DNA of 64,000 nucleotides, from IMG/VR virus record IMGVR_UViG_3300013936_000014. One strand, 5' to 3'. Positions 2,903 through 49,696 of the stretch are shown here, piece after piece (the stretch's first letter is position 1; each line of letters begins with the position of its first letter). The position numbers and the translations under genes were made by a program. Below the pieces are notes generated by a model. That model had not been told where the DNA came from. It ran no database searches and was given only the letters and a program-made list of their open reading frames with translations. The stretch is from a virus. Lineage: Duplodnaviria > Caudoviricetes.

Positions 2903-3394
2903 TCATCCATGGTTCTTCGTATCGCTTTCCCTCATCTTTTTCAGATTCAGTATTCTTTGGTTGGAACTGCCTCTCCAAAGAAGTTTGCCTCTGCCCGGAT
3001 TCAGGGCATCCACATAAGGACCGTCGATGAGCACGTCTATATATCTCATCATTTCAAGATCCTTGATGTCCTCATAGAGGAATCCCGTATAAACCCATAT
3101 GGTCTTGTCGGGATAGCGTTCTTTTATCCATTTCATGATTTCGGCGCCTTCCTCTCTGTTTGACGGGAAAGTGACCTCCCCTCCAGAAAAAGTGACGCCC
3201 GAGATCTCTTCTCTTCTCAATTGCTCATCAAGAGCGTCGTACAGCCATTCCCCGACAGGGGTGCCGACATTGGGGTCCCATGTCTCCGGATTATGGCAAT
3301 GCGGGCATCGATGGCTGCAGCCAGCGCACCATATCACGCATCTGAGCCCATCCCCATTGACCTGATTGTTCCTCTCAAATCTGATGATGTTCAT
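2903..3394 (-). CDS. nrdG: Anaerobic ribonucleotide reductase activase (radical SAM)
   Basis: NGDGLRCVIWCAGCSHRCPHCHNPETW (CxxxCxxC), GVTFSGGE, WRGSSNQR; start overlaps the nrdD stop. Confidence 0.93.
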   Translation of the reverse strand: MNIIRFERNNQVNGDGLRCVIWCAGCSHRCPHCHNPETWDPNVGTPVGEWLYDALDEQLRREEISGVTFSGGEVTFPSNREEGAEIMKWIKERYPDKTIWVYTGFLYEDIKDLEMMRYIDVLIDGPYVDALNPGRGKLLWRGSSNQRILNLKKMRESDTKNHG

Positions 3395-4377
3395 CACATG
3401 GACCTTCTGTCTTTCACTTCCGCCATTTTGGCGTCGTTCATTTTCGTGGTGCCCTCCACTTTGGAATAGCCGAGGTATCCGCACACCCTGTTTATGGTGG
3501 TGAGGTTATGGGACCCGCAGAAACCGCAGACCTCGTCGGCATCGTCGGTCTCGTTCCCACAGTCCTCACAATAGGATTTCTCTATGTTCACACCGAAATA
3601 ATATCCCAATTTCATCGCGCGCCTTATGCATTGTTTGATATATGCCTCATTCATCCCAGAGACGAAACGGCAATATTGGATGTGCCCGCCGCTCGCGATA
3701 TGGAAATATCGGAATTCCGCGTCCTGCTTCTCATAAGGCGTAATATCCTCGGTCACATGCATATGAAAGGAATTCGTGAAATACGCCCTATCAGACACTT
3801 TGTGGATCACGCCATATTTCTTCACGAATTGCTCTCGCTGAGTCCCACAAAGAGACTCTGCCGGAGTCCCATAAAGGGCCGCTATATAACACAGTTTTCC
3901 TTCTTGATATTCTATTTTTTTCTCATCGACATAGTTGCTTATGTATTTAAGGACTTTGTAAGCAAAAGCATCTTCGTCGTTTCTCACGTCATACAAAGAT
4001 TTCCCGTTATAAAGTTCTTGCAGCTCGTTCAAAGCGGTGAATCCATAAGAGAAGGTTATCCTCTTGACAAGAGGAGCGATGTCGTCTGTCGGCTTGAGGC
4101 GTCCAAAACCGCCTTCGCAATATCCGACCGGATTGCAGCTCGCTTTCAGTTTGCATAAGAAATCGAACGTTTTTATATGGAGATGGTTGATCATATCAAG
4201 ATAATAATCAAGCACTTCATAAAATCCTTTTTTCTCTTTCAATGATTTCTCATAAATCATCGGAAGATTCAAAGAAATTGCGCCGCCGTTAAAACGCCCG
4301 GTAAATATCGGCCTGTCTTCATCGCTGGCCGGCTTCAATCCGCCCTTCTCATAATAGGCGGACAAGTAGGCTCTACA
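3394..4377 (-). CDS. nrdD: Anaerobic ribonucleotide reductase, exon 2 (starts CRAYLS)
   Basis: GRFNGGAISLNLP, YGTPAESLC, C-terminal Zn ribbon and RVCGYLG glycyl-radical motif. Confidence 0.92.
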   Translation of the reverse strand, partial: CRAYLSAYYEKGGLKPASDEDRPIFTGRFNGGAISLNLPMIYEKSLKEKKGFYEVLDYYLDMINHLHIKTFDFLCKLKASCNPVGYCEGGFGRLKPTDDIAPLVKRITFSYGFTALNELQELYNGKSLYDVRNDEDAFAYKVLKYISNYVDEKKIEYQEGKLCYIAALYGTPAESLCGTQREQFVKKYGVIHKVSDRAYFTNSFHMHVTEDITPYEKQDAEFRYFHIASGGHIQYCRFVSGMNEAYIKQCIRRAMKLGYYFGVNIEKSYCEDCGNETDDADEVCGFCGSHNLTTINRVCGYLGYSKVEGTTKMNDAKMAEVKDRRSM

Positions 4378-4639
4378 CGTTTTATCGAATGTCACCATTC
4401 GCACTGACTATATTATCAGCTTTCGCTGTTTCCTATTTGGACTCGGTGCTTATCTCCGAGTCTACTCCGTTACATTCATCGCGGATAGTCGATACAGGTT
4501 CCTAATCTTTTTATAACCAATAAGATTAAGCTTCTCACGGTCTCATCTTATTTCTAAGACCTAACCGTTAGCAGCGACTAGTGTCGCCACACCCCCGAGC
4601 GGGGTTAAGGAAATTTAAGATGGGCTGTAGTTTGCGCTT
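4378..4639 (-). mobile_element. Group I self-splicing intron in nrdD (262 nt, no ORF)
   Basis: Exon ends AUGGGU and pairs with intron GCCCAU (P1, U.G wobble); CUACA pairs with 3' exon UGUAG (P10); P7 GACUAU/AUAGUC; terminal G; splicing restores PMG-CR. Confidence 0.92.
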
Positions 4640-5926
4640 ACCCATCGGGCTGATAATCGAATCAACCCATTCAGGATTCTCCTGAACATTCTCGTTCTTA
4701 TCCAAATACCATCTGGACACTCCGAATTTATGATATTTCTTGAATATGTTTGCAATCTGCGGGTCGTAATGAGGAGCGTGGGCGCCTTTGATCAAAGTCT
4801 CGTCCGGCTCATCGAGCGACAGCCAGTCCGGATACATTGCCACACAGGAAGTCTTCACGCCTTCGTTGAACAACCATTCTAATGGCTTGCCTTCCCCATG
4901 GAGTTCTTTCGTATAAAGGAACACCATCTTCGGGAAGATCGCCGGACGTTTGTGGCCAGGATGTCCTTGTCCTTCGCGTCTGACTTTCAGTGCCGTGGAC
5001 CAAACCAGAGCGCCGAATCTCGTTTCGTCACATCCGCCGGTGACGGTGATGAACGGGTAATCGCCGCGGCTTGAAGCCACAGTGTTGAACGTATGCTCGA
5101 ATCCCTGGAATACCTGCTCGATATCCCTTTCGACTTTCTTGATCGCGTACTGATCCGCCGCATGCTCATCGTAATTGCCGTTCGTCAAAGCGCAGAGCGT
5201 TTTGTACTCGAGCATGTATTTGTCATAGGTTTTTTCGGCATAGGGGGCCAAGATCGAATCTATCTCCGGCAATGTGAACCCCCCGTATTGCTGAGCCGCG
5301 CAATTCAGCGTGATGTCGCTGATCAGATTGCCTGCGGTTCGCACATCTTTAGGCTCATTGTAACCTATATGCTCCCACTCAAATCCGCCTTGCAATACTT
5401 TACCCATATCGAATAAACAGCAGTTTCCTGTGTCCAGCCTAGCGGACAGATCATGTATATAAATATACCCGTCGCTCATGGCGGACAATTCCTCTTTGCT
5501 GAGAAAATTCTTTTTGTAGATCTCTTTATTCAACGCGGAATACACCATGCTTCTCTTCGTGGAGACGAGAGCCGCCGATGTGTTCGCGTTGCTGCGATCT
5601 ATCTTGTAATTCATTTCATCCGCCGTTTTGAGGACGTTATCCATCATTTTGATGAAATCTTCCTTGTAGTTGCGGTAATCCCTATATGCCTTCGCGACAT
5701 CTTTATTCACTTTATCCAAAGCGCACTCCACGAAATTGTGCATCTTGGCCACAGGGATATTATCTTGTCCGTCTTTCTCGATTTCTTCTCCGATGAACCT
5801 CTTTATGTCTTCGAGGTCTTTGCCAGACAAAGAGATATTCACCCTATCCGCCGACTTACTCACCGCGGATCTGATTTTCTCGAAATCGAAAGGGACACAA
5901 TGATTGTCTTTTTTAATAACATTCAT
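4640..5926 (-). CDS. nrdD: Anaerobic ribonucleotide reductase, exon 1 (ATP cone; ends ISPMG)
   Basis: N-terminal ATP cone, IYIHDL, NCCLFD, QQYGG, IFPK; spliced product ~756 aa. Confidence 0.92.
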
Positions 5927-15104: not shown

Positions 15105-15560
15105 TTACTTGCTTTCGTTGATTTTCTTCTCTTCTTCAGAAGTGACCATGAATTTGCGCGTGGTTTTCGCGCTTTTTTTTGCTTCTTTTGAAGAATCGAT
15201 CATATTGTTGAACCATCCGATGGTCTCATTGATGTAATCGGCCAATTTCTTGAGGTCGTCTTCGCTGACTTCAATTCCAGCTTCTTTGCATCCCGCCACG
15301 ACCGCGTCGATGACCATCTGTTGCTTCTCAGAGCCTTTCTTTCCGCTTGCTTCGGCTTCTTTCATGGCCGCCATGGCGATATCTTTGATTTTCGACCAAT
15401 TTTTGTTTTTCATCAGTTCCGCTCCTTTTTTGACCAAACTCACCGCGGTCGGCACCAGGGCCGCGACAGCGATGACAAAACCAGCTATGAAAGTGATGAG
15501 ATTCGCCCATCCTTCGACTGTGGTGGGCCAGATGGAATTTAAGATGATGATAGAGTTCAT
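15105..15560 (-). CDS. Putative holin (LL-H-like)
   Basis: Single N-terminal TM segment, AMKEAE..GKKGSEK motif, basic tail. Confidence 0.65.
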   Translation of the reverse strand: MNSIIILNSIWPTTVEGWANLITFIAGFVIAVAALVPTAVSLVKKGAELMKNKNWSKIKDIAMAAMKEAEASGKKGSEKQQMVIDAVVAGCKEAGIEVSEDDLKKLADYINETIGWFNNMIDSSKEAKKSAKTTRKFMVTSEEEKKINESK

Positions 15561-17380
15561 AATGTTTCCTCCTTTTTCCAAAGATATTTTTTAGAGCCAG
15601 AGCCCCATATGACGGCTTCTGCTTTCTCTTTGTACTCTTTGTATTTTGACGGATTGCGCTTATAGGCAACCCCATCGATCAGATAGGTCTTGTCAGGACC
15701 GGTGTATCCGACGAACTTCATCCCAATGGCTTCATAGGATCTGCCGTCGAATTTGTTGAAATCGCAATAGCTGAAAACCTCATCAGGATTGTAATCTTCG
15801 ACGAACCTGGAAAACAGTTTGCCCACGCCGCCGATCACCACATTATTGGAGCCCGGGCAGCCGCGGATGATCTCCCAGGAATTGCTTCCCTTCAGATTGC
15901 GATTATAGCGGGTTTTGCTGAAGCTCATCAATTGCACCAATTCCCCCTCATGGAAAAGACCATAGGTGACTTGGGCATTGCGATGCCCCTGCAAATGCAC
16001 TTTGTCATTAAGAGGCTTGGCCTCTTGATTAGTGATTTGCCTGATTTCGCATTTGCGAGCATAGATTTTTCTATCCACGATGCCAAGGGCTATCTTCAGC
16101 AATTGGATGATCTTGTCTTTCATGGCGTTCCACTCATATTCGTAGATGTGAATAAGACGGATGCCTTTCGATTCAGCCAGTTTTGATTTGTCAAAATGGT
16201 AATTCCTTTCTTTGACGGCATTCGAATGCCAATAATCGCCATTGAATTCGATACCCATCTTCTTAGAAGGAACGTAAATATCAATTTCCATTCCCCCCAA
16301 AACCTTTCGGTCATGGGAGACGAAGTCGATTTTCGATTGCTTCAGGAAAGACTGCAGCTCCAATTCGGGAGATGAAGTGTAAACAGAGAAATAATTTTCC
16401 CAATGATTCTTCTTTGCGGCGGTCCTCACTTTGTTATCCGAGCACCCCAATGCTTGAGCCGCCGCGGTATAATTTGGTTTGTCGCTGAAACTATCCGTCA
16501 GGAATTCTGCGAGCCTCTCTTCGGAAGCGAGAATTCTTGCAGATTTCTCAGATCCTTTGCCGACGGGATGATCAACGCCATATTTTTTGATGCAGTTTTC
16601 CCTGTAATGCGCTCTGACCGTCGATGAGGAAAAAGAGTTTTCCACTCCGAAACGCTCTTGGTTTGTTTTCCTTTTCGTAGCTTCTATGCAGGCTTGCGAT
16701 TTGCGAATGTCGTTTTCGGCAAGCCATTTCAGCAATGTCCTCACGCTCACTTTGAATCGAGCGGCGGTCTCCAATATCGAATGGGAATTTGCAACATAAT
16801 AATCATACAATTCTTCCCTAGAAGGAAGTTTTTTGGTTTTCTTTTCGCTTAACGCCTTTTTCGCCAATTTGGTTTTCGAATAGCACTCGACGCCATATTT
16901 TTCCAAACAGGTTTTTCTGCTTTTTTCGCGCACCTCTTCCGACTGCATGGCGTAATCGCAGCCCAAACGATCTCTCATGGAGTTCTTTCGGGTCTCTTCA
17001 ACCCCTTCCTTGTCTTTTTTGATCTCGTATCGGGACAGCCAGTTTCTCACAGTATCCAGAGACACCCCATAGAAAGAGGCCAGCTGCTTTTGCGTTTTTC
17101 CTCCCAAATATTCTTTTTCTAATGCCTCTTTGGCGGGCATTTTCCAGTCAAGTTTATTCACGGGGGGTTTTTTCTCGGAGACGGCAAAGTTCCTGCATAT
17201 CGTCTCCCTCCTTGTCTGAGCCACTTCCTCAGATGGTTTCTTGATATCATTCCTATGCAAAAATTTCTCCATGCCGCTGACGGATCTGTTAAAATGACCG
17301 GCAGTTTCCACAAGAGAACGGTGCTCGTTGACGTAATATTCCCTAACTTCTTCGGGATTTAATTTTGTCATTTTGCCCAT
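15557..17380 (-). CDS. Free-standing Hef-like homing endonuclease 1
   Basis: HTH plus KYGV repeats; EIDIYVPSKKMGIEFNGDYWH (Vsr/PD-(D/E)xK); C-terminal HLQG...SYCD domain. Confidence 0.8.
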   Translation of the reverse strand: MGKMTKLNPEEVREYYVNEHRSLVETAGHFNRSVSGMEKFLHRNDIKKPSEEVAQTRRETICRNFAVSEKKPPVNKLDWKMPAKEALEKEYLGGKTQKQLASFYGVSLDTVRNWLSRYEIKKDKEGVEETRKNSMRDRLGCDYAMQSEEVREKSRKTCLEKYGVECYSKTKLAKKALSEKKTKKLPSREELYDYYVANSHSILETAARFKVSVRTLLKWLAENDIRKSQACIEATKRKTNQERFGVENSFSSSTVRAHYRENCIKKYGVDHPVGKGSEKSARILASEERLAEFLTDSFSDKPNYTAAAQALGCSDNKVRTAAKKNHWENYFSVYTSSPELELQSFLKQSKIDFVSHDRKVLGGMEIDIYVPSKKMGIEFNGDYWHSNAVKERNYHFDKSKLAESKGIRLIHIYEYEWNAMKDKIIQLLKIALGIVDRKIYARKCEIRQITNQEAKPLNDKVHLQGHRNAQVTYGLFHEGELVQLMSFSKTRYNRNLKGSNSWEIIRGCPGSNNVVIGGVGKLFSRFVEDYNPDEVFSYCDFNKFDGRSYEAIGMKFVGYTGPDKTYLIDGVAYKRNPSKYKEYKEKAEAVIWGSGSKKYLWKKEETL

Positions 17381-23575: not shown

Positions 23576-25336
23576 TCATTTCACCGAATACACCCATACT
23601 TTGTTTCCCGAGTCAAAAATACGCTTATATCCTTGCTCATGCATTATTTTATCTTCGTCTTTCATCTGACACGAATATCTGGATCTCACTTCACCCCTCC
23701 TCTTCCACCAAACGTAATTCGGCTTCGAGATATGGTCCAGAGTGAAACCCAGCTTTTCATACAGATCACCTCTCATTTTAGAGATGTCGCTGTAAGAAAT
23801 GATCTTCTGACCAGAGACGGCGTTTTTCTTTAGGAAATAGGAAAACAATTTGCTGGCCCCTCCCAAAACGCGCACGTTCCGGAGAGAGCAGTATCTCGAT
23901 ATCTCCCAATCGCCGGCTTTCGAGAATCTAGGTTTGCAAAAACTCATGAGAGCCACGAGTTGGCTACCGTCATAGAGCCCATAGCAGACAGAGCAACGGT
24001 CGTTGCCTTGGAGGTGATTGGCATCCAAAAATGCTTTTTTGTCCTTTTTAACAATCTCCTTGACAGCGGTGTCTCTCGCATAAATGCGACGAGCGCCGTC
24101 ATCTGAGAGGAGCTCTCGGATAATGCTAAGCATTTTTTCCTTTTTTGTCGGATTCTCCCATTCATATTCGAAAATATTGAAAATGAAAACCCCTTTTTGC
24201 AGCGCCAACAAAGATTTTCTCTGATGATACAGGAGATCTTTTCTGGCCTCGCTGTGCCAATAGCTTCTGTTGAACTCGATACCAATCTGCCTGGCTGGAA
24301 CGTAGAAATCTATTTCTTTTCCAGAAAGGACCGACCTGTCGTGCTCGACGAAATCGACATTCATCCCTACCAAAAACGATTTTATTTCCTTCTCCGGCAA
24401 AAAATCGCGGTATCCTATCAAATCCTGCATGCCCCAAGCGTTGATTTTGTGGCCAACAGCTGTTTCGCTGCAACCAAGGTCCGCCGCAATCTCTACTATG
24501 GTCGGTTTTTCACCACCATATTGAGAAGAAATAAAATCACGAAGGTTTTCTTTTGTTGATAAGACCGATACGGCCCCTTGCGTCGCATGAATCTGACCCA
24601 CATGCTCAACCCCATACTTCTCATGCATGCCTTCCTTGAATTTTTTGCGGAATTCCTCATTTTGCATAGGGCTTTTGGCGCCGTATTTTGCCAAATTGGC
24701 ATCTTTTATTTTCTTCTTTATCTCCTCAGAGGCAAAGACATTATCAACGCCATATTTACTACGCACAGTAGCAATGGCTTTGTTTTGAACCTCTTCGCTT
24801 TTGAGGCAGCAGTCAACGCCATATTTTTGCAAGCAGGTGTTTTTTCTGCACTCTGAGATTTCCTCTGCGGTTTTTTTCACCCCGAATCTCTTCAAAAGCT
24901 TTTGGGCGGTGCTTTGGTTCATGCCGAATTTCTCCGCGCATTCCGCAAGGCTGTGTTTCCGCAGGCAATAGTAGTCATAGAATTCCTCTTTCGTAGGCGT
25001 TTTGTAATGCTTTGAAAGCGAATCTTTGATCTTCGATACCACATCGGCCCTCTTGGAGACGTTATCTACCCCGTATTTGCCGAAGCAGGTCTCTTTTCTT
25101 CTTTCCAGGGCCTTTGCGTTGAGCTTTTCCCTGGAACCGTATTTCTCCTCTATGGATTTGCTGATGGACTGTTTGAGCAAAGCTGCGTCTTTTTTGATGC
25201 CATAATGGGAAAGCCAATGACTTATGGTCGAAACCGACACGTGATAATGGGAGGCCAATTCGTCCTTCCTGAGATTTTCCAGTATGTATTTGGAGCGAAG
25301 CTCCTCTTTGTCTGGCATGTCGATTTTTTTGCCCAT
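23576..25336 (-). CDS. Free-standing Hef-like homing endonuclease 2
   Basis: KYGVDN repeats; EIDFYVPARQIGIEFNRSYWH; HLQG/GGASKL/SYSD; RBS before MGKK at 25336. Confidence 0.8.
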   Translation of the reverse strand: MGKKIDMPDKEELRSKYILENLRKDELASHYHVSVSTISHWLSHYGIKKDAALLKQSISKSIEEKYGSREKLNAKALERRKETCFGKYGVDNVSKRADVVSKIKDSLSKHYKTPTKEEFYDYYCLRKHSLAECAEKFGMNQSTAQKLLKRFGVKKTAEEISECRKNTCLQKYGVDCCLKSEEVQNKAIATVRSKYGVDNVFASEEIKKKIKDANLAKYGAKSPMQNEEFRKKFKEGMHEKYGVEHVGQIHATQGAVSVLSTKENLRDFISSQYGGEKPTIVEIAADLGCSETAVGHKINAWGMQDLIGYRDFLPEKEIKSFLVGMNVDFVEHDRSVLSGKEIDFYVPARQIGIEFNRSYWHSEARKDLLYHQRKSLLALQKGVFIFNIFEYEWENPTKKEKMLSIIRELLSDDGARRIYARDTAVKEIVKKDKKAFLDANHLQGNDRCSVCYGLYDGSQLVALMSFCKPRFSKAGDWEISRYCSLRNVRVLGGASKLFSYFLKKNAVSGQKIISYSDISKMRGDLYEKLGFTLDHISKPNYVWWKRRGEVRSRYSCQMKDEDKIMHEQGYKRIFDSGNKVWVYSVK

Positions 25337-25398
25337 AGAGTCTCCTTTCCGCAACAAAGCGATATGGTTGTGGGTCAGCTTTTGCCAACCCACAACCT

Positions 25399-30283: not shown

Positions 30284-32029
30284 TCATTTCACCGTGTATA
30301 CCCATGTTTTCGTTCCACAGTCGCATACGCGATGATAGCCAAGAGAATGCATTCTCTCAACTTCTCCCGCTTTTTGCTCTTGATAGCGGGTTCTCATGTC
30401 TTTTGTTTTGAAATTTATCCACACATAGTTCGGCGCATTCACCGAGACGCACTCAAAGCCAAGGATTTTATATAAATCTCCTTTTGTCTTTGTAATGTCA
30501 TTATAAGAAGAGACGGTATCGCCACTATTCAAATGTTCTTCTATAAATTCTTTAAATAGTTTTGAGGCCCCTCCTTGCACCGTCACACCGTGCTTTGTGC
30601 AATATCTTGTCAGCTCCCATGTGTATTTATTGTTTTTAGGATGAGAAAAAGTCATACAAGCAACCAATTCTCCATTGTATTTCAATCCATATCCGAGATT
30701 GGCCCCCGAATTTCCCTGTATGTGGTTCTGATTCAGGAATTCGGAACGCTCTTTGGAGGATAATTCCACCAAAACGCATTTTCTTGCGGGAATCTTTTCT
30801 TTGTTCAGAATCAAAATAGAACTCAAGCGGTCTTGGATGGATTTCCTAATTCGGGGATCGTTCCATTCTCTTTCAAAAATAGTAAACAGAAAAACCCCTT
30901 TCTTTTCGGCGTTAAGAGATTTCTCCTGAGCCTGAGTGGACCTTCCGCCATGATCGGCATAGAAAATATCGCTATGCCAATAATCTCCGTTGAACTCGAT
31001 TCCGATTTTGTCATCGGGCAAATAGATGTCTATCTCTTTTCCGTTCAGGACACTTCGGTCATTCTTGACTATGTTCTTAACCCCCAAATATTCCAATAAA
31101 TCAATGATCTCGTCCTCATAGCAATATCTTGGCGGATTCAAAGAGACAAGATCTTCCAATCCCCAGTTATGAACCTTCTCATAAATGACTGTTCTGTCGG
31201 ATAGATTAAAGTAATCCTTCAATTCGTACACAGAGGGTTTCTCTGGTAGGGAAGAAAGAAAACCTTTCATCGCATCTTCTTCTTTCCAAACATCGAGATG
31301 ATGCATTTCCTTTTGCATGTGATTCTGAACTCCATATTTCTCTAATGAAGTTTTAATTCTTTTCTCTCTATATTCTTTCGTTTTGGAATAATTATCAATG
31401 CCATACCTGTTTCGCGTGGTGCTCTTAATTTTTTCTTTTATTTCCTCTGACTTCATGACATTATCGACCCCGTATTTTTCCAAACAGGTTCGGGCCGCTT
31501 TCTCTTTTACATTCTGTAACTGCAAAGTCGAGACAACCCCGTATTTGTCTTCCGTCTTGCGTCTGATGACATCGTAACGAAGCTCAGGGTCTTTGAACAC
31601 CCCGTAATAAGAGAGTATCCTATGGAATACCGCGTAGGTGATCCCCAACGACTCGCACATTTCCTCAGAGGACCTGTTCTGCGTCAAATACTGGGTTTTC
31701 AGCCAATCTACCGTATATTCTTTGCCGCAGACGGTGAATCTTTCCGCATCGATAAGCCTGATTGGGCTGTCCGCGGCGGTTTTGTTAGCCGCGCCGTATC
31801 TGACGATATTGGTATTTCTGATTTTGTTTTTCACTTCCTCAGATTTTTGCGTCTGGGAGTATATCTTCGATTTGTCCTCTTTGGATCTCCGTATACCGTA
31901 ATTCCTGAGATAGCGGTTGAAGGTCGCTCTTGCGACGCCAAAATGATCGGCGCATTGCTGGGCGGTGTGAAGCCCACGGACATAATATTCTTCTATTTGC
32001 TCTTTGGTGATGTTGTTTTTTTTGCCCAT
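30284..32029 (-). CDS. Free-standing Hef-like homing endonuclease 3
   Basis: KYGV repeats; EIDIYLPDDKIGIEFNGDYWH; HIQG/GGASKL. Confidence 0.8.
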   Translation of the reverse strand: MGKKNNITKEQIEEYYVRGLHTAQQCADHFGVARATFNRYLRNYGIRRSKEDKSKIYSQTQKSEEVKNKIRNTNIVRYGAANKTAADSPIRLIDAERFTVCGKEYTVDWLKTQYLTQNRSSEEMCESLGITYAVFHRILSYYGVFKDPELRYDVIRRKTEDKYGVVSTLQLQNVKEKAARTCLEKYGVDNVMKSEEIKEKIKSTTRNRYGIDNYSKTKEYREKRIKTSLEKYGVQNHMQKEMHHLDVWKEEDAMKGFLSSLPEKPSVYELKDYFNLSDRTVIYEKVHNWGLEDLVSLNPPRYCYEDEIIDLLEYLGVKNIVKNDRSVLNGKEIDIYLPDDKIGIEFNGDYWHSDIFYADHGGRSTQAQEKSLNAEKKGVFLFTIFEREWNDPRIRKSIQDRLSSILILNKEKIPARKCVLVELSSKERSEFLNQNHIQGNSGANLGYGLKYNGELVACMTFSHPKNNKYTWELTRYCTKHGVTVQGGASKLFKEFIEEHLNSGDTVSSYNDITKTKGDLYKILGFECVSVNAPNYVWINFKTKDMRTRYQEQKAGEVERMHSLGYHRVCDCGTKTWVYTVK

Positions 32030-41602: not shown

Positions 41603-43271
41603 GTGCCAGTTGTGCAGAATCTATATCAGATCTTCAAAATTCCGGCGTCCGTCTTGGTCGCCAAAAACTGCATTTGGGACAATTATTCAAGAGCCCAAGG
41701 CTACAAAGACGGGAACATCGTCTCCATCGGCGACAACATCGTGTTCCAGCAGCTCCGCTATATCCACGGCGACATGCGCGAGCATCATGAGATCTTCAAT
41801 TACATCCAGCGTCTTCGCAATTCCATGAGGCGCTACAAAAAAGAAGGGAAGAAAGAAGAGGCGAAGATACTGGGATACAGGATAAACCAGGTCATGTTCG
41901 TGGAAGACATCGTGAACGTCTTCGTGGACGGCAAGAAATCCGATTTCCACAAATTCCGCACCAAGGGGTTCGAATTCAATGGGCACAGATACGTCTATCT
42001 CTGCTCGGGCGCCGGCCAGATCCGCCGCAACACCGCCACCTTCGTGCGCGAGGAATACCACGACAGGCTCGTCAAAACCATCAACTGCGGGCTCGACGAG
42101 AAGACCTCCGAGTTCGTCCTGGCGAAATACAGCGCCTACTTCGCGCTCGCTTTCTCCTCGATACTCTGGGTCCGCACCCCCCGCTGCTGCGTCATCAGGG
42201 ATTTCAAAAGAAACCTTCCCAAACAACCCGTCGACTTCATCTGCAAGGATGCCGCCGGCAAATCGATCATCGAGAAGCGCGAGATGGACGTCGAGCTCAA
42301 CTGCTTCGACGGGCAGGGGCTCATAGACCCCGAGTTCGCGCAGCTCTGGTCCGAGGACATGGACCTCAACTACACGCCATGCTCGTTTGTCGCCCGCTCC
42401 TGCTTCGTCAAGGGGAACCTCGCGACGTTCGACTTCAAAGCCTATGCCCGCGAGCACGGGATCAAAACCGTCAGGGACCGCTGGGGCAAGGAATACGACG
42501 TCGAGGACATCGACGTCATCCTCTCGGAGTCCCAGTTCAAGACCGCCAAGTATTACTCCTCTTGGGAGGAATACCTCGGCTACGCGAACGCGGGCAGCAT
42601 CCACTGGGGCGTCGCGAGATACAACAGGGAGACGGACGACGAATGGGTGCTGGCAAACTACCAGTACATCCAGTCGCTCACCCTCTCGAAAGACGACATC
42701 AAGGGGCTCATCGCCCCCACGATCGACTGGATAAGGAAGATCTGCTCCGGGGATGAGCTCTACACCCTGCTTTACTGCTTCGGCCCGAAATCCGGCTCAA
42801 GCGACTATCGGCAGATGCTTGGGACGGCGCAGACGACCATGATGAAGGCCATCGTGAAAAACGTCGACTTCCTCAAGGACTCATACGTTCAAGGCAAAAT
42901 ATACAAGAACATCGCCGAGACGATAAACAAGGCGAAGATCGGCAAGATATGGGTGCATGGCAATTACCAATTCATGGTGTCCGATCCGCTCGCCCAATGC
43001 CAATGGGCGCTCGGGCTCGACCCGGTGGGCGGGCTCAAGGCGAACGAGATATACTCAAAGTTCTGGAGCGACCGATTGCGGGAAGACCCCGCACGGGATA
43101 CGGGTTGCCTCGTTGACGCGTGCAGATCGCCGTTGATCGATCAGCATGAGCACAACCCGATGAGCGTCATCATGAACAACGAAGAAGCTGACAAATGGTA
43201 CAGGTTCCTGCCGAGCGGAATAATCTACAACTGCTACGACACGAGCTGCGCCAGGCACAGCGATTCGGACT
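41603..43271 (+). CDS. YonO-like single-subunit RNA polymerase, exon 1
   Basis: RdRP-like double-psi-barrel motifs (SGAGQIR, FDGQG, RSP); ends ..HSDSD+T. Confidence 0.85.
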
Positions 43272-43648
43272 TAACATCTAGGTCTTCCATATGGCGACAT
43301 ATGGTCAAGTCTTGGTGAACACGCAAAGTGGTGTGGGAGGGGAATCCCTCCTGCTAACATCAAAAACCGTAAAATAGGTATTGAAATGGAACGCAACAAA
43401 ACAATCGGCAATAAAAAGAAACAAAAGAGTCGATGGCTATTTGATAAGAAAAATACCTAAAGGCAATGATGTGCCAAGCCTCCGCAAGGAGGAAGGTGCA
43501 ACGACTAGGGAAACCGCCGGCAAAGCCGGAGAAGGGAGTACCGTAGGGGCGTCTGAGATGACGTCTCGAAGTGCCAAGCAACTCGGAAACGAGTTGAAGA
43601 AATAGTCTAAGCCCCTAATAAATATCGGGAAACCGAGGGTATCAACTG
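43272..43648 (+). mobile_element. Group I intron within the RNAP DFDGD motif (377 nt)
   Basis: P1 GGACU/GGUCU with U.G wobble; P7 GACUA/UAGUC; terminal G; splicing gives GAC TTC GAT GGT GAC. Confidence 0.9.
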
Positions 43649-44976
43649 TCGATGGTGACATAGTGATGACTACGGACAACCCGTACTTCATCAAAGGCTC
43701 CCACAAGGACCACAACATAATACTTTACGAAAAAGGCCTCGCGACCCCCGCGAAGATGACCACGTCCAACATAACGGCGGCTGTTCTCAGGGGGTTCGGG
43801 ACAGCTGTCGGGAGTTTCTCAAATTGCGCCACGATCATGTATGCGATGGCTGCGATTTTCGACAAGCCGGGCCAAGAGGACCAGGAAAACACAATTTACA
43901 ACCGAATAAAGCTTCTAAGAGAGATAGTCGGCCAAGAGATCGACAAAATAAAAGGCTGCAAACCTCCTCATCTCCCTTCTGACTGGAAGAAATACGAGCG
44001 CACGCTCCCAGACGATGAAGAGGAAGAAAGGCAGCGCAAATACAAACACAATGCTTTGGTGATATCGAAGAAACCCTATTTCTTCCGTTATCTCTACCCA
44101 GAGCTAAATCGTCGCTACAAGCAATTCGAGGCGTCCTACAACCAAGTCAGCCGCGACATGTTCGGGATCAAATTCAAGAAGCTTCTCGCCAAGCGGGACA
44201 AAACGCCAGAGGAGGTCGCGCTGGTCCGCAAATACCAGAAATACAACCCCCTCATCACCTCAAACTGCACGATGAACGTCCTCTGCAGGATGGTGGAGTC
44301 GGTCGACTTCGACATCCGCTTCGCGAAGGACGACTCGGACACGAGGAGGCAAGCCGTCTCCATGCTTCCAACATACGAGGGGTATTACGGCGCCTCCTTC
44401 TCGCAGGAGAAGTTCAATTACGTCAAGTCGCTCTACCGTCGCTATTGCTCCCGCCGCCAAATAAAACAATTGGAATCCATCATGGATAACGTGCCGACCA
44501 ATCCTTATTCCGACGATTTCGCGGAGATCAGGCACAACATGCTTGACGCATTCCTTGACGAATTGCGCAAAGATCTTGAGTCAAGCAATATCAACGATGA
44601 GGAATTCCTCTTCTATTGCTCCCGCCTTGCCCCAACCTATAACAATTTCAGCTGGGGATTCGCATGGGACGTCCTGGGGGATTCGATCTTGGAGGCAATC
44701 CCGCAAGGCAGAACCCTGTACCCGGTCCGCGACCCCGACGGCGTCGAGTATCTTGGGGGCCGCTACGTCCTGGAGGACATCTCCGACAAAGGGGAGCTCG
44801 CCATACAGTCCCTCCTCGATTCCGTCTTCGGGGACCCGGAGGGCACGCTCACCGAGGAGGAGATAGCCCAGATGGCGCGAGAGGAAAATCTTGACATCAA
44901 GGGGAAAAAATCGGATAATGACGCAGAAAGGGGAACGGAGAAGAAGGAAGGGAAAGACGATGACGAAGATGAGTGA
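43649..44976 (+). CDS. YonO-like RNA polymerase, exon 2
   Basis: (F)DGDIVMTTDN, GQEIDKIKG, KPYFF; spliced product ~998 aa. Confidence 0.85.
44891..44919 (+). promoter_or_regulatory. Sigma-A promoter inside the RNAP 3' end
   Basis: TTGACA-17-GATAAT. Confidence 0.55.
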
Positions 44977-47234: not shown

Positions 47235-47647
47235 GATTCATCGAAAGGCTGAAGGGGCTCTTCAAGAAGAGAGAGACCGAGAGATCCACATTCGCCATCA
47301 CGTTCAGGCACTCCGCCAAGAGCATCGAGTTCGAGGGGACCTGGGAGGAGGTCAAGGGCCTCTTCGGGAAGTTCGCCGGAGGCAAGGGGCTGAAGATGGG
47401 CAACTTCTTCGTCCCGTGGGACGAGGTCGCCTTCATCTATCAGGAAGACAAAGAGGAGAAGAAGGACGAGGCGAAGAAGGGGCCGAAGCCGGGGGACGAG
47501 ATCCCCGCGACGCCCGAGGCGAAGGACCTCGGGGCGGAGACCATGGAAGTCCTCGGGGAGAAGGAAAGCCCGAAGGACGCGAGGATCGACGAGGTCAAGG
47601 CGGCGGTCGAGAAGGAGACCGAGGTCAAGGCCGAGGAAATCAAATAA
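47231..47647 (+). CDS. Hypothetical protein
   Basis: GGAGG RBS; ATGA overlap. Confidence 0.65.
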   Translation: MRFIERLKGLFKKRETERSTFAITFRHSAKSIEFEGTWEEVKGLFGKFAGGKGLKMGNFFVPWDEVAFIYQEDKEEKKDEAKKGPKPGDEIPATPEAKDLGAETMEVLGEKESPKDARIDEVKAAVEKETEVKAEEIK

Positions 47648-47670
47648 AGGAGGGAAACCTCCTTTTTTTT
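47646..47670 (+). terminator. Intrinsic terminator
   Basis: GGAGG-GAAA-CCTCC-T8. Confidence 0.8.
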
Positions 47671-47924
47671 CATGCCCCCGGAAAACGCCCCGGGGGCTTT
47701 TCGGGCGGGCCGAACCGAAATCAGGGGCCGCGGGCCGCCGGAGGCCGCGCGCGAGGCGGGGGGCGGATGGGGCAGGGGCGACGGCAACGGCTGCGGCGAC
47801 GACTCGGGGGAGCAGCGGCGGCTGCGGCTGCGGCGGCAACTCGGGGGGCGGGGGAGACCAGTGAAAGGGAAATAAGAAAGAAATTATTTCTTTTAAAATG
47901 TAAATTAGGGTTTTCCTGGTTTAC

Positions 47925-47991
47925 CGTCGACTAGGCGACGTTAAACAGCCGTCAGGCCTAGTGCGTCCTTCCTTTTAAGGGAAGGGGTCGG
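47925..47991 (+). ncRNA. Pistol self-cleaving ribozyme
   Basis: P1 CGUCG/CGACG; loop ACUAGG pseudoknots with CCUAGU; UUAAACA linker; P2 CCG/CGG; GCG; P3 hairpin; GU cleavage site at 47987/47988. Confidence 0.88.
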
Positions 47992-48020
47992 ATCGTATAT
48001 CCGAGAAAGGAGATACTCTC

Positions 48021-48236
48021 ATGAAGTATCGTTTCATTTCGTTCCGCACTTACGGAACAGGCGTCGTTCAATACGACACAAAGGCATTCATGTCTGAAGA
48101 CATGGGTGCCTTGATCGAGGCCGTCTGCCAGGAGGCCCGAATCCTCTTGGCGAACGGCCACGACCGCATCACGGTCCACGAGACCTGCGATGCGGAGGAC
48201 GCGAAAAGATGGAATATTTCCATCTGCCGCGTCTAA
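48021..48236 (+). CDS. Hypothetical early protein
   Basis: AAAGGAG RBS; 71 aa. Confidence 0.7.
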   Translation: MKYRFISFRTYGTGVVQYDTKAFMSEDMGALIEAVCQEARILLANGHDRITVHETCDAEDAKRWNISICRV

Positions 48237-49152
48237 GCCGCAAGGCCCCTCTCTCAAAAGAGAGAGGATCGGTGCAAGCCCGATGCCCCGAAAGGGGTGG
48301 CGCTCATGGCCTATGACCATCGAGGTTGCTCTCGTTAAAAAGCTATGGCGCTTTCAGGCGCCAGCGTCGTGCGAATCTTGACGCACGATGGCTGGGCAAG
48401 ACGCTTGAAGGCAAATGCCAGCGGTGGCAAACTCACCATCGCCCAGACGGGGGTCATCCCCGAACGGTGCAAAGCAAATAACCTCGCTTTGCGTAGTAAA
48501 AAAGAGGTAGACGCCCCTGCTTCCGCGGATCATCCGCAGGCGGTTGGGAAACGCACAAAGGAAAGCCAGGACTCAGAGCCTGGCGGCCCGATAAGGGAAA
48601 AGATGGAGCGACTGCAATCCAGGCAGGAAATGGCTTGGACTAACGCGCAACAGCGGCGCGGCGGGAAAACGATACCACTGATTTGATGTGGCTGGGTGAG
48701 ACGCCTCTCTTCTATGTCCTTCGACCGACGATCGAGGGAATGCGGATGGAGGGATGGCGGAAGTACCTCTGCCTCCTCATGCACGTTTCATGAGGGGGTT
48801 GGCACAGAGGGAAAACAGTCGCACCTCAAGGTGGGAGCTCGGTTGCGAAGCAACCAGGTGCACGGCTCGAATGGGGGAGATTCCCCCGGGCCCGGGAACA
48901 AAAATGACATGATTCTGCGGTGTCTTGGGTAGGTTTGCGTCGAAAACCTATCTCCGCGACCCTCAATCGTGTCTCTAGTCAACTGGAGCATCCTCCCTCA
49001 CGATGGAGGGTAACGTCTGCTTCAACGTCGTCGTGAAGAGGCAGTGAGGCGGCATCACGCCAAGACCAGGAAAATGATGGCAGATATCGGACGCGAGGGC
49101 GCTAAGGCCACGACAACGTTCGCGTTCCGGACAAAACATAGTGGCACCGCCA
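48237..49152 (+). ncRNA. Large structured non-coding RNA candidate (~0.9 kb)
   Basis: No RBS-led ORF; more than 15 hairpins; long-range helices; ends at a terminator. Confidence 0.65.
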
Positions 49153-49180
49153 GGGGCTGTCTTCGGACAGCTCCTTTTTC
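49153..49180 (+). terminator. Intrinsic terminator
   Basis: GGGGCTGTC-TTCG-GACAGCTCC-TTTTT. Confidence 0.85.
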
Positions 49181-49240
49181 TTAATGCGGCAAGCTGGTCC
49201 CAAGCCCAGCGGAAGACGCAGAGGGAGAAAGGAGACTGAT

Positions 49241-49696
49241 ATGTCTCAAAACAGAAAAGCGGAAGCTCGCCTCATGTGCGACTATCCGATCTTCGGGACC
49301 GTCTCAGACGTGTCCCGAATGAGCACAGGCGTCGTCTACGTCCGCCCGTGCTACTTCAAAGCAGGCGTGGACAAGGAGGTCGCGATCTTCCTTCGCGACG
49401 CGAAGAAGGAGCGCTGGGCGACCAAAGAGAATCTGAAGGTCGGCACCAAGCTGACCTTCATGATCAGCATCGACCCATTCAAGGGGCCGATGGCGACGAG
49501 CCTCAGAACGGTGAATGCCGCGCCGAAGGACGCGTATTCCGAGCCTTACCGCCCGGACTGCATCCCGGATGCGAAAGGCTTCCGCCGCATCATCGAGGCG
49601 GCGAGAAGACGGGACATGAGGGCTTGCCGCGAAAAGCTGGCGGCCTCATCCGACCCCGTCGACAGGCTCTTGGCGGCCATCCTGCCACGAGACTGA
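49241..49696 (+). CDS. Hypothetical early protein
   Basis: AAAGGAG RBS. Confidence 0.65.
   Translation: MSQNRKAEARLMCDYPIFGTVSDVSRMSTGVVYVRPCYFKAGVDKEVAIFLRDAKKERWATKENLKVGTKLTFMISIDPFKGPMATSLRTVNAAPKDAYSEPYRPDCIPDAKGFRRIIEAARRRDMRACREKLAASSDPVDRLLAAILPRD

Follow-up and report, generated by a model that had tools for sequence, protein, structure and literature searches.

The leader of a small phage gene contains a pistol self-cleaving ribozyme whose predicted 3' product opens with a hairpin, and this hairpin re-uses the 3' strand of the ribozyme's own helix P2. Product-end hairpins are a real, recurrent, and non-universal trait of about a quarter to a third of pistols. We favour the reading in which the hairpin of this locus captures the product strand after cleavage and protects the new end of the message, and we give it a probability of about 0.45. 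The locus lies in a window of 64,000 nucleotides (the whole stretch of DNA that was analysed), where it comprises the following elements.

47646..47701, + strand: two terminator-like hairpins, with stems at 47646-47665 (U run) and 47674-47697 (UUUU)
47891..47907, + strand: conserved upstream motif TTTTAAAATGTAAATTA, which ends a conserved block 17 nt before the pistol
47925..47992, + strand: pistol self-cleaving ribozyme (Rfam RF02679 match), predicted cut G47987/U47988
47988..48004, + strand: hairpin with which the predicted 3' product starts, 6 bp and a loop of 5 nt (sequence and fold)
48005..48023, + strand: Shine-Dalgarno (SD) sequence GAAAGGAG at 48005-12, 8-nt spacer, and start codon ATG at 48021-23
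48021..48236, + strand: ORF of 71 aa, a conserved phage protein family with 78 homologue clusters
48233..48316, + strand: twister-sister ribozyme (RF02681) overlapping the stop codon of the 71-aa ORF, predicted cut C48305/A48306
48306..48320, + strand: small stem of AUGG and CCAU around a 7-nt loop, flush with the start of the twister-sister 3' product
49178..49229, + strand: candidate twister (type P1)-like element (RF03160), below threshold

The pistol class reportedly goes back to Weinberg et al. 2015. In an Rfam scan of all 64,000 nucleotides, the RF02679 covariance model matches 47925-47992 on the + strand over model positions 1-68 of 68; its score of 67.1 bits (E 4.8e-10; gathering score, 34.5) is far beyond chance. 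Reading the sequence element by element, we find P1 with 4/4 bp paired and a pseudoknot with 6/6 bp between CUAGGC in the P1 loop (47931-36) and GCCUAG between P2 and P3 (47956-61). A seventh pseudoknot pair, A6-U38, involves two positions that covary among the pistols we collected. The A-rich linker has its AAA at 47943-45, and GCGU at 47963-66 is followed by a P3 of 8-9 bp. P2 consists of three Watson-Crick pairs (47949-51 with 47989-91) and a G.A mismatch at the fourth position; three pairs are the norm, and the mismatch is found in nearly all of the 148 pistols that were parsed. The cut dinucleotide, G-U at 47987/47988, lies just 5' of the P2 3' strand. A first-pass annotation of this DNA had listed all pistol elements as present and predicted the cut between G47987 and U47988. 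The full-model match and our reading of the sequence bear out both statements. We are nearly certain that this is a true pistol ribozyme. It is an ordinary member of its class, nothing in its core deviates, and it is probably active in the leader of the small phage gene.

Given a cut at 47987/88, the 3' product starts with UCGGAU/CGUAU/AUCCGA (47988-48004), a perfect 6-bp stem that would begin at product nucleotide +1. Because the 5' arm of this hairpin includes the P2 3' strand, as read from the sequence, P2 and the hairpin are mutually exclusive. The hairpin is part of the minimum free energy fold of the precursor as well as of the product, and nearest-neighbour energies in context give about -6.2 kcal/mol for the hairpin and -1.6 kcal/mol for P2. 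These results agree with the earlier claims that a hairpin stands directly at the product 5' end, followed by the ribosome binding site (GAAAGGAG from 48005), and that it competes with P2: the two share the strand 47989-91, and the energies favour the hairpin in uncut RNA. The stem is modest in strength. Folded alone, the 17 nt reach -5.4 kcal/mol (z -1.68), and 19/200 shuffles fold as well. Hence, the hairpin is within chance at this single locus and is lifted above it only by comparative tests, as a property of a subset of pistols.

For these tests, pistols were collected from viral, genome, and metagenome collections with a search pattern that constrains only the part of the ribozyme located 5' of the cut. 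The 148 parsed pistols formed 75 lineages when clustered at 70% identity over the first 50 product nucleotides, and the cut-site assignment matched the Rfam coordinates on 20 loci. In 28% of the 75 lineages, pairing of product nucleotides +2..+4 (the P2 3' strand) within the product reaches P>=0.9, compared with ~12% when the downstream sequence is shuffled, ~12% in head/tail chimeras, and 7-15% in shifted windows. This excess is robust: with windows of 25-60 nt and two clustering thresholds it is 24-33% vs 9-15%, and 0 of 60 permutations per setting reached it. A model-free count gave a perfect complement of product nucleotides 2-5 within nucleotides 9-30 in 14/75 lineages, vs 4.1+-2.0 for the shuffle and 4.8+-1.9 for the chimera null (0/1000 each as high, p<0.001). 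Across lineages, the sequence of the hairpin's 3' arm changes together with that of the P2 strand, and very stable hairpins, of -13 to -20 kcal/mol, are found in some other pistol lineages. Among five Rfam-found pistols outside the test set, the hairpin is present in two, partial in one, and absent in two; two of the three tandem pistols of locus L009 lack it. Since the nulls reach ~12%, chance would account for a considerable part of the individual hairpins.

The lineages of the hairpin class have a stem that starts exactly at U+1 in 21/23 cases. We considered this flush start as independent evidence, on the basis of a p of ~0.002 against raw base composition, and dropped it: among sequences required to hold a stable hairpin including nucleotides 2-4, the conditioned nulls gave 0.79-0.88 (p 0.11-0.49). 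The stem can be extended across the cut to G-1 in only 3/21 cases, and the missing extension is weak as evidence because purine-rich SD sequences come next and confound it.

Pistols are also placed close to genes. An SD sequence and a start codon with an open frame lie within 60 nt of the cut in 52% of the 75 lineages, compared with 2.7% on the reverse complement, and the typical distance from cut to start codon is 26-48 nt. Pistols are often found in same-strand arrays of ribozymes between small genes. Dense arrays of this type, with one ribozyme per small gene, occur at L024 (3742-9597, two pistols and eight type II hammerheads in 6 kb on the same strand), L009 (1375-2006, three pistols spaced about 280 nt), L037 (4111-7628), and L084 (1532-2621), and the phage or prophage loci that bear arrays include some from Streptomyces.

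The orthologues of the 71-aa gene provide a closer comparison and show three leader configurations (alignment A2). The close relatives L199, L065/L157, and L138 have the pistol and essentially the same hairpin, with 1-2 bases different. One of the six hairpin pairs is lost in L065/L157, the pistol P3 has diverged with compensation, and the ORFs have 92-94% nucleotide identity (6-8% diverged). There is no informative covariation in this lineage because the relatives are too similar. In the distant orthologues (L189, L195, L197, L200, L172) the pistol is kept and the hairpin is different and longer, still starting at product nucleotide +1 or +3. The third group (L185-188, L191-194, L202) lacks the pistol and has two plain hairpins in the leader, preceded by the same upstream motif. 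At the other end of the gene, the twister-sister is kept downstream of the orthologous ORF in most relatives, whereas L195-L198 and L200-L202 have a long stem-loop in its place; the complete pistol-ORF-twister-sister module recurs in L065, L157, L138, and L172. Judging from these alignments, ribozymes are exchangeable with ordinary stem-loops at both ends of the 71-aa gene. This fits, without proving it, a role in shaping RNA ends.

The second ribozyme of the unit, which the first-pass annotation had not mentioned, shows the same product-end design. The RF02681 match at 48233-48316 scores 56.7 bits vs a gathering score of 34 (Rfam scan), and its cut was mapped by the conserved CGCUC/AU segment, in which 48301-48307 correspond to C58-U61 and C62/A63 of PMC5660989. 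The stem at 48306-48320 re-uses the P1 3' strand of the twister-sister, and in relatives both of its arms are invariant and its loop is variable. Viral contigs provided 41 twister-sister lineages, and in 71-76% of these the equivalent nucleotides pair with P>=0.9, vs 38-42% in shuffles. A perfect 4-bp complement within nucleotides 9-26 is found in 22/41 lineages vs 6.3+-2.1, and the highest of 500 shuffles reached 14. The chimera null carries no information for this class, as its product heads are nearly all identical. The product-end stem is of GGG/CCC type in most lineages and AUGG/CCAU at this locus. Among the classes found here, pistol and twister-sister are the two with a cut close to the ribozyme's 3' edge, which leaves the 5'-OH almost bare. 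Downstream of each there tends to be a strand that mimics the partner of the product strand, and the enrichment is stronger for twister-sister. The two predicted cuts (47987/88 and 48305/06) would release an RNA of 318 nt with one ORF, that of 71 aa.

Homologues of this ORF form 78 clusters with 61-99% identity, and almost all are exactly 71 aa long. The protein has no match in Pfam or PHROG, its AlphaFold model has a pLDDT of 62.7, too weak for fold comparison, and searches of viral contigs with the protein and its alignment as queries confirmed no related locus. A blastn search of 47600-49400 against phage records also gave no match. The SD sequence and the start codon are predicted to pair with the first codons: the segment 47988-48060 folds with -22.2 kcal/mol (z -3.64), and 0/200 shuffles are as stable. 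This structure, 3' of the product hairpin, may serve to control translation.

Upstream of the pistol, the first of the two terminator-like hairpins comes from a terminator scan and the second was read from the sequence. They lie between the upstream gene and the pistol unit and together suggest that this unit is transcribed on its own or by read-through. The block at 47700-47907, conserved upstream of the 71-aa gene, contains a G-rich tract with GGC-type repeats, a small A/T hairpin, and the 17-nt motif TTTTAAAATGTAAATTA. The motif is conserved at orthologous loci with and without the pistol (alignment A2) and is possibly a promoter or an operator. The window contains a single copy of it, for which reason we rejected a repeated phage promoter, and a promoter scan found no sigma-70-type promoter beside the pistol and no -35 partner for the motif. 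In pistol-less relatives the motif lies inside a near-perfect inverted repeat, which suggests a protein-binding site.

About 0.9 kb past the twister-sister, the twister-P1-like element is a third ribozyme candidate on the same strand. Its RF03160 match at 49178-49229 has 43.3 bits (E 3.1e-06) in a permissive scan and is below the gathering score of 67.2. A terminator-like hairpin (49152-49175) directly precedes it, and its 3' part overlaps the SD sequence of an ORF that starts at 49241. In the intervening ~0.9 kb (48306-49182), no ORF is convincing and Rfam gives no match at E<=1. At orthologous loci (L185-L194, about 1720-2950), 0.8-1.4 kb without a called + strand gene are found in the same place, and the interval may be a large non-coding RNA.

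The virus is, judging from its genes, a large SPbeta-like phage with a YonO-type RNA polymerase. Its minus-strand arm carries terminase, portal, exonuclease, NrdD, and homing endonucleases. The plus-strand arm opens with the YonO-type single-subunit polymerase (Pfam RdRP match), whose relatives are found in SPbeta-like Bacillus, Clostridium, and Enterocloster phages. This polymerase gene (41603-44976) consists of two ORFs that match the N- and C-terminal parts of the same PHROG; a group-I-intron-like element located between these ORFs (43276-43630, 27.5 bits, E 0.005) apparently interrupts the gene. NrdD (3394-5926, - strand) is also in two ORFs, with the N-terminal part at 4568-5926 and the C-terminal part at 3394-4404. 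There are also three large genes for homing/HNH endonucleases (30284-32029, 23576-25393, and 15557-17380), and the genome is rich in mobile insertions.

We infer from these observations how the unit would work in vivo. The pistol would fold during transcription and cut at G47987/U47988, after which the 3-bp P2 would release the product strand. This strand, with which the downstream RNA now begins, would be captured in the 47988-48004 hairpin by the downstream mimic of its former partner, and this capture would drive the reaction forward and make the cut effectively irreversible. The resulting mRNA would have its 5'-OH end buried in a stem and an exposed SD sequence directly 3' of it. Published precedents make end protection by the product hairpin plausible for a host of the Firmicute type: the stem could shield the 5'-OH from RNase J-type 5'-to-3' decay and from 5'-end trimming, with possible effects on half-life and translation. 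After the twister-sister cut at 48305/48306, the 3' end would be structured by most of the fold of that ribozyme, and the result would be a mini-mRNA of 318 nt. The pattern across lineages suggests, without proving it, that pistol and twister-sister ribozymes make protected message ends.

The first-pass annotation had proposed that cleavage produces a 5'-OH mRNA led and protected by the hairpin, and only part of this proposal stands. In its favour are the enrichment of hairpins after pistols and twister-sisters, the proximity to start codons, and precedents in Firmicutes (PMC11780869). Against it, the flush start at U+1 is matched by the conditioned nulls, the relatives are too alike for covariation, and the hairpin outcompetes P2 before cleavage.

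The last point is the main difficulty of the capture-and-protection reading and concerns kinetics. The 3' arm of the hairpin is transcribed 12-17 nt after P2 is complete, and the measured pistol cleaves at ~10 per min in vitro under physiological conditions (PMC4604425). Cleavage is slow relative to this sub-second wait and the hairpin beats P2, so the hairpin may hinder cleavage. In the absence of tertiary contacts that hold the active fold, it should form first and slow the reaction. A serious rival, which we regard as quite unlikely all the same, takes the hairpin for an OFF-state element that captures the P2 3' strand in the uncut RNA and restrains or gates self-cleavage. Only a fraction of the RNA would then be cut, either before the 3' arm emerges or after the hairpin is melted, for example by a 30S subunit at the adjacent SD sequence, and the ribozyme would be a kinetic or translation-coupled switch and no constitutive processor. 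Besides this timing, the rival can draw on the mutual exclusivity of hairpin and P2, on a calculated balance that favours the hairpin by about 4.6 kcal/mol with tertiary contacts excluded, on a 3' arm that adjoins the SD sequence, and on the hairpins of -13 to -20 kcal/mol of some other lineages. However, the energy model misses the tertiary stabilisation of the ribozyme, and no ligand- or factor-binding element is evident. Most twister-sister lineages have an equivalent hairpin, and self-inhibition of a whole class would be odd. The rarity of stems extendable to G-1 (3/21) also speaks against an OFF state, a point weakened by the purine-rich SD sequence downstream.

It is somewhat unlikely, yet still to be taken seriously, that the stem is a product of chance, or an ordinary leader structure, with no selected role linked to the ribozyme at this locus. 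The single-locus statistics (z -1.68, 19/200 shuffles as good) are what such a stem would give, about 12% of the null sequences meet the pairing criterion, close relatives show no compensatory change and a lost pair in L065/L157, and at least two thirds of pistols have no such hairpin, including 2/3 of the tandem pistols in L009. Yet the excess at the population level (p<0.001) does not follow from chance, distant orthologues keep a hairpin on the same nucleotides with another sequence, and the twister-sister 300 nt downstream has the same design, which is strongly enriched throughout its class. A very improbable alternative concerns the unit as a whole: the flanking ribozymes would excise a 318-nt RNA (47988-48305) with a 5'-OH and a 2',3'-cyclic phosphate, to be circularised or re-ligated, and the terminal structures would help to bring the RNA ends together. 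RtcB-type ligases join 5'-OH and 2',3'-cyclic phosphate ends. The chemistry of both ribozymes, which leave such ends (PMC5660989), and the recurrence of the module in four relatives (L065, L157, L138, L172) are in line with excision. Nevertheless, the two ends are not evidently complementary to each other, several orthologous loci keep the ORF and lack the pistol or the twister-sister, such that excision by both ribozymes is not required, and no RtcB or other RNA-repair gene was found among about 40 larger ORFs of the window (Pfam/PHROGs).

Beyond this locus, post-cleavage capture with end protection can be generalised. Pistols and twister-sisters may commonly carry an accessory strand-mimic module and act as natural 'cut-and-cap' devices, by which the 5' ends of mRNAs are defined and protected between phage genes, a tentative proposal that we hold at less than even odds. 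A bolder version would make both classes kinetic switches, with cleavage gated by transcription speed or ribosome binding. To our knowledge, natural small ribozymes with a built-in OFF state are rare, and the hairpin would also be important if it mainly restrains cleavage. For most bacterial self-cleaving ribozymes, pistol and twister-sister included, the literature still gives the biological role as unknown, and it has already been suggested, and is unproven, that bacterial ribozymes process transcripts into RNAs of different stability (PMC6765202, a 2019 review). The released-strand hairpin gives this idea of processing and stability a concrete structure that can be mutated, and it makes specific predictions about the kinetics of cleavage, the mapping of 5'-OH ends, and the dependence on RNase J. 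The orthologous gene with and without a pistol in related phages is a natural comparison set.

In comparison with known systems, the locus has the same phage setting with neighbouring ribozymes as was seen at the discovery of the pistol class (RF02679; PMC4604425). The family model does not include the product-end hairpin that shares the P2 3' strand. This hairpin is absent from PMC4604425 (Harris et al. 2015), where the words 'hairpin' and 'downstream' do not occur, and we found no description of a product-end hairpin made from the released strand in the literature searched, which left the 2015 discovery paper aside. Similarly, the second ribozyme of the locus is a clear member of twister-sister (RF02681, PMC5660989), with a product-end stem outside the described family.

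Two natural systems of Firmicutes resemble parts of the proposed unit. In Bacillus subtilis cggR/gapA, an RNase Y-processed mRNA accumulates through a 5' stabilizing hairpin, as also for glnRA (PMC11780869). These mRNAs share with the locus an internal endonucleolytic cut with a stem-loop immediately 3' of it. They differ in that a protein nuclease leaves a 5'-phosphate and stability was measured, whereas the RNA of our locus would cut itself, leave a 5'-OH, and gain a stability that we infer. The glmS ribozyme of Firmicutes is, like this pistol, located in an mRNA leader and gives a downstream product with a 5'-OH. That product is degraded by RNase J1, and 5'-OH ends are trimmed by an unidentified activity (PMC11780869). 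Unlike glmS, which depends on a metabolite and destabilises its message via RNase J1, the pistol has no known ligand pocket, and the predicted structure at its product end would act in the opposite sense.

A direct parallel is engineered. The synthetic insulator RiboJ consists of the sTRSV hammerhead and a 23-nt hairpin placed before the ribosome binding site; it raises expression, and its terminal hairpin was proposed to raise mRNA stability and expose the ribosome binding site (PMC6206723). The locus has the same order of ribozyme, hairpin, and ribosome binding site, and its predicted cut would likewise remove the upstream part and leave a hairpin-led mRNA with a 5'-OH. In contrast to RiboJ, it is natural and uses a pistol instead of a hammerhead, and its hairpin starts from product nucleotide 1, is built of the ribozyme's own strand, and competes with the active fold. 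The novelty is a recurrent accessory feature of two known ribozyme classes, the ribozyme itself being known.
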